From positions 272,616 to 336,615 of the forward strand of contig CAVZJB010000009.1 of the NCBI GenBank assembly GCA_963775425.1: 64,000 bases of DNA, given 5' to 3'. The DNA is from an uncultured delta proteobacterium. GTDB taxonomy: Bacteria; Myxococcota; UBA727; VGSZ01. The notes below the pieces were generated by a model. That model had not been told where the DNA came from, ran no database searches, and worked only from the letters and a program-made list of their open reading frames with translations. The stretch's first letter is position 1. Every line of letters begins with the position of its first letter. Of the stretch, positions 12,636 through 63,708 are shown piece by piece. Made by a program: the position numbers and the translations under genes.

Positions 12636-14304
12636 TCACGCGCGGCCGGCGAGGACGTCCTTGTGGTCGGCGCGCAGGCGCTGCTTGAGGAACTTGCCGG
12701 TGGAGGTGCGCGGGATTCTGATCGACGAAGACGTAGGCGTCGGGGAGCCAGAACCTGGCGAACTTGCCGTCGAGGTGCGCGGTGAGCTCTTTGTCGGTGA
12801 CGGTCTGTCCCTGCCTCACGACGATGGCTGCGACGGGCCGCTCGTCCCACTTGGCGTGCGGCGCGCCGAACACCGCCGCCTCGAGGACGGCCGGGTGCGC
12901 CATCAGCGCGTTTTCGAGCGCGACGGAGCTGATCCACTCGCCGCCGGACTTGATGACGTCCTTGCTGCGGTCGGTGATGTGCATGTAGCCCTCGGGCGTG
13001 ATGGTGACGACGTCACCCGTCTTGAACCACCCGTCCTTGGTGAAGCGGTCCTTGCCTTCGTCCGCCATGTAGCTGGCGGCGACCCACGGCCCGCGCACCT
13101 CGAGCTCGCCCATGGCCTTGCCGTCCCACGGCAGCACGGTGCCGGCGTCGTCGACGTGGCGCATCTCCACGAGCGGCGCGGGCACGCCCTGCGACGCGCG
13201 CGCCGCGAGCACCGCCTCCGGCCCGCGCTTACGCACCGCAGGCGTGACGCGGGCGAGCGTCCCGAGGGGGTTCATCTCGGTCATGCCCCAGGCGTGCGTG
13301 ACCTCGATGTCGTGGCGCTCGAGGAAGCCCTGGATGAGCGACGCCGGCGCCGCAGAGCCGCCGATGATCATGCTGCGGATGGCGGAGAGGTCCCACTGCT
13401 TGGGCGCGGCGTCGAGCTTGTCGAGGATGGCGAGCCAGATGGTGGGCACGCCGCCGGCGAGCGTGACCTTCTCCTTGGCCATCAGGTCGAGGAGCGACAC
13501 GGCGTCGAGGTGGGGCCCGGGGAAGATGAGGCTTGCGCCGTTCAGGAACGCGGCCCAGGGCAGGCCCCACGCCGCGGCGTGGAACATGGGGACCACGGGG
13601 AGGACGACGTCGCTGCTGCCGACGCCGATCATGTCGCGCATGGACACGGCCATGGTGTGCAGCATCACCGAGCGGTGCGTGTAGACGACGCCCTTGGGGT
13701 TGCCGGTGGTGCCGGACGTGTAACAGATCATCGCCGCCGTCTTCTCGTCGATGTCGACCGCGAAGGGCGAGCCCGCCGGCGGCGACGTGCCGGTGGCGTG
13801 CGCCGACGCCTGCTGCGCCTCGAGGAGCGCTTCGTAGTCGTGCGCGCCTTCGGGGACGGGGCCGCCGTCGTCGCGGACCACGATGACGTGGCGGACGCTC
13901 TTGCAGCGCGCGCGAAACTTCTCCCACAGCGGCCACAGCGTGCGGTCGACGACGACGACGCTGTCCTGCGCGTGATCGACGATGTACGTGAGCTCGTCGG
14001 GGTGAAGGCGCAGGTTGAGGGTGTGGACCACCGCGCCCATCGCGGGGACGCCGAGGTACACCTCGAGGTGCTCGCGGTGGTTCCAGCACAGCGTGGCCAC
14101 ACGGTCGCCTTGCTTGACGCCGAGGGCCGCGAGCGCGCGGGCGCAGCGCTCGGCGCGGGTGTACGTGTCGGCGAAGCTCTGGCGCACGACGGACTTGTCC
14201 GGGCGCCGGCTCACGACCTCTGCGTCGCCGAAGAGCGCGCGCCCGCGCTCCAGGAGGTGACCGAGGCTCAGCGGGAAGTCCATCATGCGGTCGTCGAGGT
14301 TCAT
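12636..14304 (-). pseudogene. Medium/long-chain fatty-acid--CoA ligase (AMP-forming), interrupted by a +1 frameshift near the C-terminus (or a sequence error)
   Basis: Core motifs: YTSGTTGNPKGVVYTH, WGMTE, TGDVVTI...ITDRSKDVIKSGGEWIS. After ...DAYVFVDQ the frame breaks at 12714-12719. The shifted frame reads IPRTSTGKFLKQRLRADHKDVLAGRA and stops at 12636. The track ORF running to 12436 is a read-through artefact. Confidence 0.85.
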
Positions 14305-14482
14305 GGCGGCGCTTTTACTGCGATTCGCACGGCGTGACGACCGGCTGCTGCGGCGCCGGCGCGCGAGGCATGAGCGAGAAGGCGCTGTGCGAAATCGCCG
14401 GCTGTCTCACGACGATGAGGTGGGTTTCTGCGTGCTACTGCCGAGATGAACGACCGCGCGCATCGCGCGCCACGAGGATTCG

Positions 14483-15691
14483 ATGGCAGCACGCTTTTTC
14501 CCGCTCCGTCCCGTTGTTGTCACCCTCGCCGCAAGCTTCGTGGCAGCCGCGTGCGCCCCCGACAGCGCCGCGCGCCCGCCGGCCAAGGGCACGCACCCCG
14601 CCGGCGAGGGTGACGTCGCCGGCGAAGGGGAGGGCGAGAGCGCCGAAGGAGAGGGTGAGAGCGCCGGCGAAGGCGAGGGCGAAGGGGACGTCACCGGCGA
14701 GGGCGAGGGCGAAGGGGACGTCACCGGCGAGGGCGAGGGCGAGGGCGAGGGCGAGGGCGAGGGCGAAGGGGACGTCGGCGCCGAGGTCTGGCGGCCGTTC
14801 TCCGACGCGAGCCCGTGGAACACGCCCATCCCCGCGAACGCGGCGGTGGATCCGGACAGCGCCGCGCTCGTCGACGACTTCATGCACAGCTCGCCCTTCG
14901 GCGTGCACCTCGACATCAACATCACCGGCTTCTCCATCCCGCTGTTCTTCGCGGACGGCAGCACGCCGCAGGTCCCCATCGTCGCGGGCATCGGCGGCGA
15001 GGGCTGGGGCGCAGGCGGCTTCAACGCCTCCCTCGCCATGCCGTTGCCGCCGGGCGCCGCGCCCGATCCGCAGTCGGACCACCACATCTCCGTCGTCGAC
15101 CGCGCGCTGGGGATCGAGTGGGGCTGCTGGGACACGCACCTGGACACCCAGAGCGCGGGCCTGTGCGCCACCACCGATCTCAACGGCGACGGCGTGCGAC
15201 CGCTCGCCGCGGTGGCGAACCCGTGGTGGGACGCGCACGGCGCGCGTGCGTGCGGCTTCCCCCTCGTCGCCGGGCTCATCCGCCCCGAAGAGATCGCCGC
15301 CGGTCACATCCGCCACGCGCTCGTCGTCGCGTACCCGCACATCCGCGCGGGCTTCTACACGCCGCCGGCGTCGACGGCGCAGGCGCGCGTGGGAAGCAAC
15401 TCCATCAGCACGCGCGGCATCCCCTGCGGCGGCCGCATCCAGCTCGACCCGGGCTTCGACGTCGAGCACGCCAACGTCAGCCCCGCCGGCAAGGTCGTCC
15501 TGCGCGCGCTGCAGGAGTACGGCGCGTACGTCGGCGACTACTCCGGCGCCCTCGACCTCTACGCGGACGGCGCCCCCGACGCGCAGGCCGCCTGGAACGG
15601 CGTGCTCGACAGCGGCGCGCTCGGCAACCTCGACATGACGAACCTGCGCGTGATCCAGCTCGGCCAGTTGTTCGACAACGGCAACGGCTGA
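14483..15691 (+). CDS. Probable lipoprotein with a long acidic (Gly-Glu)n region and a C-terminal domain of unknown function
   Basis: Signal peptide MAARFFPLRPVVVTLAASFVAAAC, followed by about 55 aa of GEGE/GDVT repeats, then a globular domain (WRPFSDASPWNTPIP...). Confidence 0.7.
   Translation: MAARFFPLRPVVVTLAASFVAAACAPDSAARPPAKGTHPAGEGDVAGEGEGESAEGEGESAGEGEGEGDVTGEGEGEGDVTGEGEGEGEGEGEGEGDVGAEVWRPFSDASPWNTPIPANAAVDPDSAALVDDFMHSSPFGVHLDINITGFSIPLFFADGSTPQVPIVAGIGGEGWGAGGFNASLAMPLPPGAAPDPQSDHHISVVDRALGIEWGCWDTHLDTQSAGLCATTDLNGDGVRPLAAVANPWWDAHGARACGFPLVAGLIRPEEIAAGHIRHALVVAYPHIRAGFYTPPASTAQARVGSNSISTRGIPCGGRIQLDPGFDVEHANVSPAGKVVLRALQEYGAYVGDYSGALDLYADGAPDAQAAWNGVLDSGALGNLDMTNLRVIQLGQLFDNGNG
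14603..14775. repeat. In-frame GGCGAG-type hexanucleotide array with a nested direct repeat of about 33 bp (GEGEGEGDVT x2)
   Basis: The plus strand reads ggcgagggcgagggcgaaggggacgtcaccggc twice, followed by (ggcgag)n. Confidence 0.8.
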
Positions 15692-15739
15692 AAGGCTGAC
15701 GAAAAGCAAGGCTCGTAGCAGCACTCGGCGAAGCCGCCC

Positions 15740-62645: not shown

Positions 62646-62781
62646 GGCGGGGCTCCTTCTTTCTGCTGAGCATTTCGTTCGTGTGTGCTCACGGAGAGGT
62701 TCGTCACGGCGCGGGCCCTGATTAAGATCTGCGTCGCCGGATCAACCCGCGCGGACGAATTCGCCGCACAAAAGAGCGCAA

Positions 62782-62801
62782 GGACGGAGCGAGCCCCGTC
62801 C
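62782..62801 (-). terminator. Weak rho-independent terminator candidate after flgL
   Basis: The minus strand reads GGACGGggctcgctCCGTCC followed by ttgcgctcttttgtg (6-bp stem, T-rich tail). Confidence 0.35.
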
Positions 62802-62828
62802 TCATCACCGCGGCGCGGACCCGCGGGG

Positions 62829-63708
62829 TCACAGCTTGTCGAGGATGGTGAGCTGGAAGCTCTTGGCGCTCACGGTCAGCGCGGCGTCGAGCGAGCGCTC
62901 GGCGAACGCGAGAATCCGTCGCCGCCTTCGCGATGTCGGCGTCGGTCAGGCCGGCGCGCCTGCCGTCGGCCGCGTCCGCCACGTCGCCCGCGGCGGTCTG
63001 CGCGGCGTCCAGGCCGAGCTCGATGCCGCCGGCGTCGGCGCGGCCGGCGCCGACCTGCGCGATGCCCGAGCGCAGCGTGTCGATGCTCGCGCGCAGCCCC
63101 GTGGTGTCGTTGGTGGACAGCGCGGTGGCCAGGTCGCCGAGGGCCTGGAGGACGTCGACGCCGCCGCCGGCGCCCTTGATGACGACGTCGGCGCGCACGG
63201 ACACGCCCTGCACCACGCCGGGCGCGACCTCGATCTGCCGGACGCCGGCGTCGCCGGTGTAGCTGCCGTCGGCCTGGAACGGGGCCGCGTTGTCGACGGT
63301 GCCGCCCATGACGAAGCGGCCGCCGACGTCGATGTTCAACGCGCTCACGGCTTCGGCCAGCATCTGCGTCGCCTGGCTCGCGGCGCTCGCGCGATCCGCG
63401 CTGTTGTAGGTGCCGTTCGACATCTGGATCGCGAGCTGCTGCGCGCGCGAGAGCGTGTTGATCACCGACGACAGCGCGCCGTCGGCGGCGTTGACGTCGT
63501 CAAGCGCCCGTGACGTCGTGGTCGAGATGCCCGAAGCGCGCACCGCGGCGAAGCGCTCGCGCGCGATCTGCCCCGCGGAGTCCGTCTCCCAGGGGTGCCG
63601 CACGGAGACGCCGGTGGAGGCGCGGTCGGTGGCCTTCTCGTAGCGCTCGCGCGCGGTCTGCGTCGCGGCGTTCGCGTTGGCGAAGATGGAGCTATCAGTG
63701 ACGCGCAC
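62829..63708 (-). pseudogene. flgL: Flagellar hook-associated protein 3 (FlgL), C-terminus displaced by a +1 frameshift (or a sequence error)
   Basis: GTG start (VRVTDSSIF...). After ...GLTDADIAKAATD the frame breaks at 62911-62916. The shifted frame gives LAFAERSLDAALTVSAKSFQLTILDKL and stops at 62829 (conserved flagellin-like C-terminus). The track ORF end at 62722 is a read-through. Confidence 0.8.

Follow-up and report, generated by a model that had tools for sequence, protein, structure and literature searches.

We examined a stretch of 64,000 nucleotides (hereafter the window) from an uncultured delta proteobacterium of the Myxococcota, positions 272,616 to 336,615 of contig CAVZJB010000009.1 in assembly GCA_963775425.1, and in it four genes whose reading frames are broken at one and the same hexamer, AGAATC, or GATTCT on the opposite strand. 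The genes code for a long-chain acyl-CoA ligase, a small nuclease-family protein of the GIY-YIG type, SbcC and the flagellar protein FlgL. A preliminary description of this DNA, made by reading the letters, had reported that every copy of the hexamer coincides with a +1 frameshift in a conserved gene. The four hexamer-linked frameshifts are confirmed here. An exact search of both strands found the same four copies and no others, so that none lies inside an intact reading frame of the window. The sites and the genes that contain them are listed below, with protein lengths after repair.

12714..12719, minus strand: site 1; GATTCT on the plus strand, coding strand C-AGAATC-C; the extra A stands in CAG-A-ATC, and repair to CAGATC reads Gln-Ile-Pro.
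12636..14304, minus strand: long-chain acyl-CoA ligase (AMP-binding), 555 amino acids (aa), with Pfam AMP-binding (1.2e-78) and AMP-binding_C domains.
23922..23927, plus strand: site 2; AGAATC on the plus strand, coding (minus) strand GAT TCT C; repair to GAT CTC reads Asp-Leu.
23681..24023, minus strand: small GIY-YIG nuclease-family gene, about 101 aa, with a GTG start at 23987 and an outer possible TTG start at 24023.
27622..27627, plus strand: site 3; AGAATC on the plus strand, coding strand GAT TCT C; repair to GAT CTC reads Asp-Leu.
24057..27687, minus strand: sbcC, 1209 aa, with a GTG start that overlaps the sbcD stop in GTGA (27684-27687).
62911..62916, plus strand: site 4; AGAATC on the plus strand, coding strand GAT TCT C; repair to GAT CTC reads Asp-Leu.
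62829..63708, minus strand: flgL (flagellar hook-associated protein 3), 292 aa, with NCBIfam FlgL and flagellin models and Pfam Flagellin_N.

Reading frames were followed with a seven-state codon Viterbi model (six frames plus a non-coding state), self-trained on the long open reading frames (ORFs) of the window, in which in-frame stops were forbidden. Its frame switches fall at 12715/6, 23922/3, 27622/3 and 62911/2, that is, exactly at the four hexamers. Deletion of one A/T from each hexamer joins the pieces into single ORFs of 555, about 101, 1209 and 292 aa, and the repair proposed in the preliminary description therefore gives full-length frames in all four genes. The lesion is a single-base insertion at every site, (G/C)AGATC having become (G/C)AGAATC. 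Repair restores GAGATC at three sites and CAGATC at site 1, again as had been described, and the tract at the shift site grows only from one A to two. Each gene carries one lesion, and both the Viterbi path and the codon bias are unbroken up to the site from either side; in sbcC the bias is kept over about 1186 codons downstream of site 3. Away from the hexamer the tracker flagged only two further frame breaks in the window (GC content 70-80%), at about 16080 and about 34710, neither of them in a conserved single-copy gene.

It is useful to trace the effect of the repair gene by gene. In the ligase the frame shifts 26 codons short of the stop, and the A10 STGK lysine motif is lost. In the repaired protein the Pfam AMP-binding_C domain covers residues 463-537 and spans the junction, and every ligase homologue inspected has Q(I/V)PR(T/N)STGKFLK with the same spacing. 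The preliminary description had proposed that orthologues be compared for AGATC at the same codons. At site 1 their DNA reads CAG ATC/ATT CC(G/T), in frame (GAT CAG ATC CCT in locus L003, CAG ATT CCG in loci L002 and L004), where the window has CAG AAT CCC. The GIY-YIG gene is broken about 21 codons after its GTG start, with loss of the GIY motif; on the repaired protein the Pfam GIY-YIG domain (2.4e-16) occupies residues 2-72 and is continuous over the junction.

At sites 3 and 4 the Pfam matches do not span the junctions, and these were checked by structure, NCBIfam models and homologue alignments. In sbcC the frame is lost 21 codons into the gene, before Walker A is reached. Once repaired, the N-terminus of SbcC can be aligned from residue 2 without gaps to the solved structure of E. 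coli SbcC, 6S6V (3.3e-38), and its residues 2-217 are matched by NCBIfam SbcC models. The repaired protein has further matches to Pfam AAA_23 and SbcC_Walker_B. The region of this gene, 24001-28000, reaches a GC content of about 80% and codes for a coiled coil extremely rich in Ala, Arg and Glu. It also holds shadow ORFs of more than 1000 aa on both strands, and ORF length alone is therefore misleading in the window.

The flgL frameshift lies 27 codons before the stop, with loss of the C-terminal helix. NCBIfam FlgL and flagellin models extend to the last residues of the repaired protein, which aligns without gaps to FlgL homologues of 292-295 aa, through 'AATD/LAFAERSLD...LDKL' (the slash marks the junction). 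The gene stands within an otherwise undamaged flgK-flgL-fliC-fliD-fliS cluster, and the operon partners of the broken genes (sbcD, flgK, fliC, fliD and fliS) are intact. This flagellar filament and hook-junction cluster occupies 59720-64000 on the minus strand and includes the FlgK C-terminus, FlgL, flagellin (N and C domains), FliD and FliS. The closest homologues of the genome are Myxococcota, Polyangia and Anaeromyxobacter metagenome-assembled genomes (MAGs). The phylum is mostly a gliding one, and the cluster may merit a look.

The same lesions are found in public protein records. P0001 (622 aa) is exactly the read-through product of the frameshifted ligase, and P0121 (328 aa) is that of the frameshifted FlgL, diverging from its homologues right after AATD. 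Both come from a 394,389-bp contig in NCBI/ENA. Since these two proteins are read-through products, the public record carries the lesions at sites 1 and 4. Apart from these two records, the nearest homologues have identities of 74% (ligase) and 59% (FlgL) and belong mostly to Myxococcota, Polyangiaceae and Polyangia MAGs; the source is therefore an uncultured lineage, apparently Polyangiaceae-like, without a close sequenced relative. A search of genome contigs with SbcD gave one locus only, 51% identical. In related Polyangiaceae loci AGAATC occurs deep inside continuous coding segments, in frame and with no break.

All four broken genes lie on the minus strand, and AGAATC stands on the coding strand once (in the ligase) and on the template strand three times (as GATTCT on the coding strand). 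Because the motif is found on both strands of the genes, the event belongs to the level of DNA or of the recorded sequence. This arrangement bears on the suggestion that programmed +1 recoding takes place at the hexamers. The genome seldom uses the codons AGA and AAT, and +1 shifts can be promoted by rare codons. As in prfB-type programmed +1 frameshifting, there is one nucleotide to skip for a full-length protein and there are rare codons at the site. Unlike in the prfB type, the motif occurs on either strand (one coding, three template) in four unrelated genes and is not conserved in orthologues; of the four genes, the ligase alone has the hexamer on its mRNA strand, and the ligase and FlgL orthologues are in frame and have no extra base. 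The strand asymmetry and the in-frame orthologues led us to rule out translational recoding. A phase-variable simple-sequence contingency locus was rejected too, as there is no long homopolymer or short tandem repeat at the shift sites, only the step from one A to two.

Could the four genes be ordinary pseudogenes of a decaying genome? The two other frame breaks in the window would agree with this. However, these breaks affect a transposase relic and a degenerate repeat gene and no conserved single-copy gene, and decay would not reuse one hexamer four times. Ordinary pseudogene decay was rejected on the grounds of one lesion per gene, identical context and intact codon bias. Taken together, programmed recoding and decay form an explanation to which we give almost no credence.

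The chance of such a coincidence can be expressed in numbers. Random doubling of a single A/T yields this hexamer with p = 0.0114, and four such events have a probability of about 1.7e-8. For four random duplications that share any one hexamer class, P = 3e-6 to 1.4e-4. The earlier argument that random decay cannot explain four hits in one motif thus holds both for this hexamer and for any hexamer.

Its headline, that every copy is a frameshift, is true for four of four copies but is weaker than it sounds. A dinucleotide shuffle of the sequence predicts 9.6 copies of the hexamer, while under a codon-aware null, in which the codons of the coding segments are shuffled or resampled synonymously, only about 1.5 copies are expected in frame and P(0) is about 0.22-0.25; for this reason the lack of harmless AGAATC copies is unremarkable. 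Each reading frame of AGAATC needs an A/T-ending codon, and because the genome has about 72% GC with strongly GC-ending codons, the hexamer is nearly absent from real in-frame sequence. The remarkable direction is therefore that the frame breaks share one hexamer, not that the hexamers lack in-frame copies.

If the insertions depend on the sequence context, then we can ask: How often is this context affected? The window contains 305 GATC sites, 4 of them affected (about 1%), and 151 AGATC sites, 4 of them affected (about 3%). The 147 intact AGATC sites include 73 GAGATC and 39 CAGATC, which bears out the earlier remark that intact GAGATC sites exist. Even 8-mers identical to those at the affected sites are intact elsewhere, in 18 copies of CGAGATCG and 8 copies of CGAGATCC. 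The affected sites are also unremarkable in their local GC (0.62-0.72 against a mean of 0.685). On these two observations, a search for a longer motif behind the insertions came out negative. The preliminary description had also placed the other GANTC pentamers in frame, and this is what we find: the remaining 17 GAATC pentamers are without a frame break. Since these other NGAATC copies are unbroken, an A before GATC is required.

Several other sources of the motif were considered and rejected. A CcrM-type GANTC motif disagrees with the 17 unbroken GAATC sites and with about 41 GAGTC/GACTC sites, likewise without a frame break. A generic homopolymer error disagrees with the coding G/C runs of 5, 6 and 7 nt, which number 81, 12 and 1 (94 in total) and have no frame break in any of them, the lesion here being the doubling of a single A. 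AGATC also forms the first five bases of the Illumina TruSeq adapter. An artefact of adapter trimming or polishing was rejected because the adapter is not continued at the sites (AGATCGT, AGATCGA, AGATCCG, AGATCCC) and no route to an inserted A is apparent.

The preliminary description had left two explanations, a systematic error of base calling or assembly at a modified GATC, with a Dam-like methylome as its consequence, and a site-specific mutational process. Its consensus-error explanation is the better fit of the two, given one lesion per gene, intact codon bias, orthologues in frame and the harmless AGAATC of the Polyangiaceae loci. The methylome is a separate question. According to this version, the insertions are basecalling errors caused by N6-methyladenine (m6A) at GATC. 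In its favour, GATC is present at all four sites after repair, Dam would methylate the very A that is doubled, and concentration of nanopore consensus errors in methylation motifs is documented (PMC6591954, PMC11610603). On the other hand, only 4 of the 305 GATC sites are affected, all with the A-GATC flank. The remaining 17 NGAATC copies are unbroken, and identical 8-mers elsewhere in the window have escaped. Modification errors, as far as they are documented, are substitutions (PMC11610603), and a Pfam search of the window's 51 coding segments revealed no methyltransferase or restriction gene. The share of GATC sites affected, the flank requirement, the insertion type and the methyltransferase search thus lend no support to a Dam-like m6A methylome, which we regard as rather unlikely. 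A longer, non-palindromic or partially methylated motif is possible.

The part of these results that does not depend on any mechanism is that non-random single-base insertions in one shared context, in otherwise undamaged genes, are present in the public record. In our opinion the four frameshifts are quite likely a context-specific, low-penetrance +1 consensus insertion artefact of the public assembly and not a property of the organism's DNA. A base-calling, consensus or polishing step would occasionally have doubled the A in (G/C)AGATC to give (G/C)AGAATC, at about 3% of AGATC sites. The cause may be context-specific miscalling of the signal, possibly but not necessarily tied to a base modification. 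Because AGAATC is nearly absent from real frames, its few occurrences would then nearly all be such errors. An artefact also agrees with the state of the operons, since the frameshifts would give null alleles while the operon partners are intact.

Several observations weigh against an artefact of this kind. The first is the low penetrance, with identical 8-mers elsewhere unaffected. The second is the insertion itself, at a non-homopolymer site while all 94 coding G/C runs of 5 nt or more are intact, which is an atypical error profile for long reads. Modification-induced errors described in the literature are moreover substitutions (PMC11610603), and here we have insertions. That the base was added in sequencing or consensus building rather than in the cell is something we infer. 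The remaining two observations concern the position of the insertions. These (12716, 23924, 27624 and 62913) are found at a distance of 21-33 codons from a gene end, two of them close to a stop and two close to a start, whereas 21% of the intact genic AGATC sites (n = 136) are equally near an end (P about 0.002, a post hoc comparison that rests on four sites). The GAT CTC phase (Asp-Leu, with the minor Asp codon) was hit in 3 of 22 cases, against 1 of 129 for the other phases (hypergeometric P about 0.01, also post hoc and resting on four sites). Both patterns count against an artefact because an error that arises purely in the reads should be indifferent to the position in the gene and to codon phase. 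The clustering near gene ends could reflect selection, chance or, speculatively, a homology-guided frameshift repair that misses terminal shifts.

In an alternative view, the insertions are recent mutations of the organism itself, the work of a site-specific process at AGATC, with selection clearing them from gene interiors and leaving those near the ends. A sequence-specific endonuclease, for example, might make a nick or a 1-nt staggered break, and fill-in and end joining would then duplicate the A. The shared, non-random context would agree with such a process, and so would a lesion type unlike the commonly described long-read error modes, while the position of all four sites near a gene terminus resembles a selection filter. 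The clustering near termini and the codon-phase bias are the only observations that favour a real process over an artefact, and both are post hoc and based on four sites. We know of no such mutational mechanism. The frameshifts are not obviously tolerable, as the ligase loses STGK, the SbcC N-terminus has no usable restart and FlgL loses its C-terminal helix. At four null alleles in about 50 genes, hundreds would be expected in the whole genome, but neither a second lesion nor a loss of codon bias is seen, and the operon partners are intact. Like the methyltransferase, an endonuclease gene was not found among the 51 coding segments. A real site-specific process therefore seems to us very unlikely, if less so than recoding or decay.

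How does a consensus artefact at AGATC compare with the errors already described? Gene-fragmenting indels in long-read genome and metagenome assemblies, together with tools for their correction, have been reported (PMC11649196, PMC12007338). As with those indels, the single-base insertions here break conserved genes that are otherwise intact, and gene calling then gives split or read-through proteins, of which P0001 and P0121 are examples; their density is about one per 13-16 kb. In contrast to the classic long-read indels, which occur in homopolymers of 3-5 nt or more, a single A is doubled here in one hexamer context. Strain-dependent residual errors are described for native high-GC bacterial DNA (PMC11649196).

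Nanopore consensus errors can concentrate in a taxon-specific methylation motif for which the basecaller was not trained, with about 70% of them in Dcm motifs in one study (PMC6591954). The insertions in the window resemble the errors at methylation motifs (Dcm CCWGG, Dam GATC), which are taxon-dependent (PMC6591954, PMC11610603), in that they fall in one short motif containing GATC. Those errors are mainly C to T and G to A changes of high penetrance, whereas here there are +1 insertions at about 1% of GATC and about 3% of AGATC sites, with a need for the upstream A. In R10.4.1 data, base modification caused strand-specific substitutions (C to T, G to A) and left indels unaffected (PMC11610603). 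Our search of the literature on insertions at GATC/AGATC or m6A returned reports of the substitution type only and no such insertion.

If the four frameshifts are an artefact, then about 7% of the genes in the window are shortened or lengthened by context-specific +1 insertions in a public assembly, and spurious entries such as P0001 and P0121 have reached large protein databases. In that case the biological novelty is nil. A hexamer that is depleted by codon bias and seen only at frame breaks may nevertheless serve as a reference-free screen for flagging or repairing errors in high-GC assemblies, and such a screen possibly points to a sequence or modification context on which basecallers have not been trained. 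If the insertions are real, they would represent a form of site-specific insertion mutagenesis hitherto unknown and of considerable interest.

The two frame breaks away from the hexamer have their own features. The first, at about 16080, is in a truncated transposase-like relic (15688-16190, minus strand) that abuts a convergent gene and looks like natural decay. By eye the relic resembles the N-terminal domain of an insertion sequence (IS)-type transposase; Pfam gave no match to it at E <= 1e-5. The second break is in a lipoprotein-like Cys-rich repeat gene (34164-34922) with irregular units, CGDG...CDDG...GDGC, and a weak DUF4215 match. Here, at 34705-34716, there is an apparent 1-nt deletion (GGCACGGCGAC), and neither frame has a stop close by. 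Collapse of the repeat, an assembly error of a second type or genuine decay could each account for the break.

Among the other genes of the window, a purine/urate catabolism cluster (33809-39795, minus strand) includes HIUase/transthyretin, a fused allantoicase and OHCU decarboxylase, an amidohydrolase and a protein with the urate oxidase N-terminal domain. A single-module gene similar to nonribosomal peptide synthetases (47832-52205, minus strand, 1458 aa) has an N-terminal formyltransferase domain followed by adenylation, carrier and thioesterase domains, and is flanked by genes for an asparagine synthase, an ABC transporter and a 2-hydroxyacid dehydrogenase. Finally, a calpain-family (Peptidase_C2) cysteine protease domain is present in a protein of 600 aa encoded at 9323-11122 on the minus strand.

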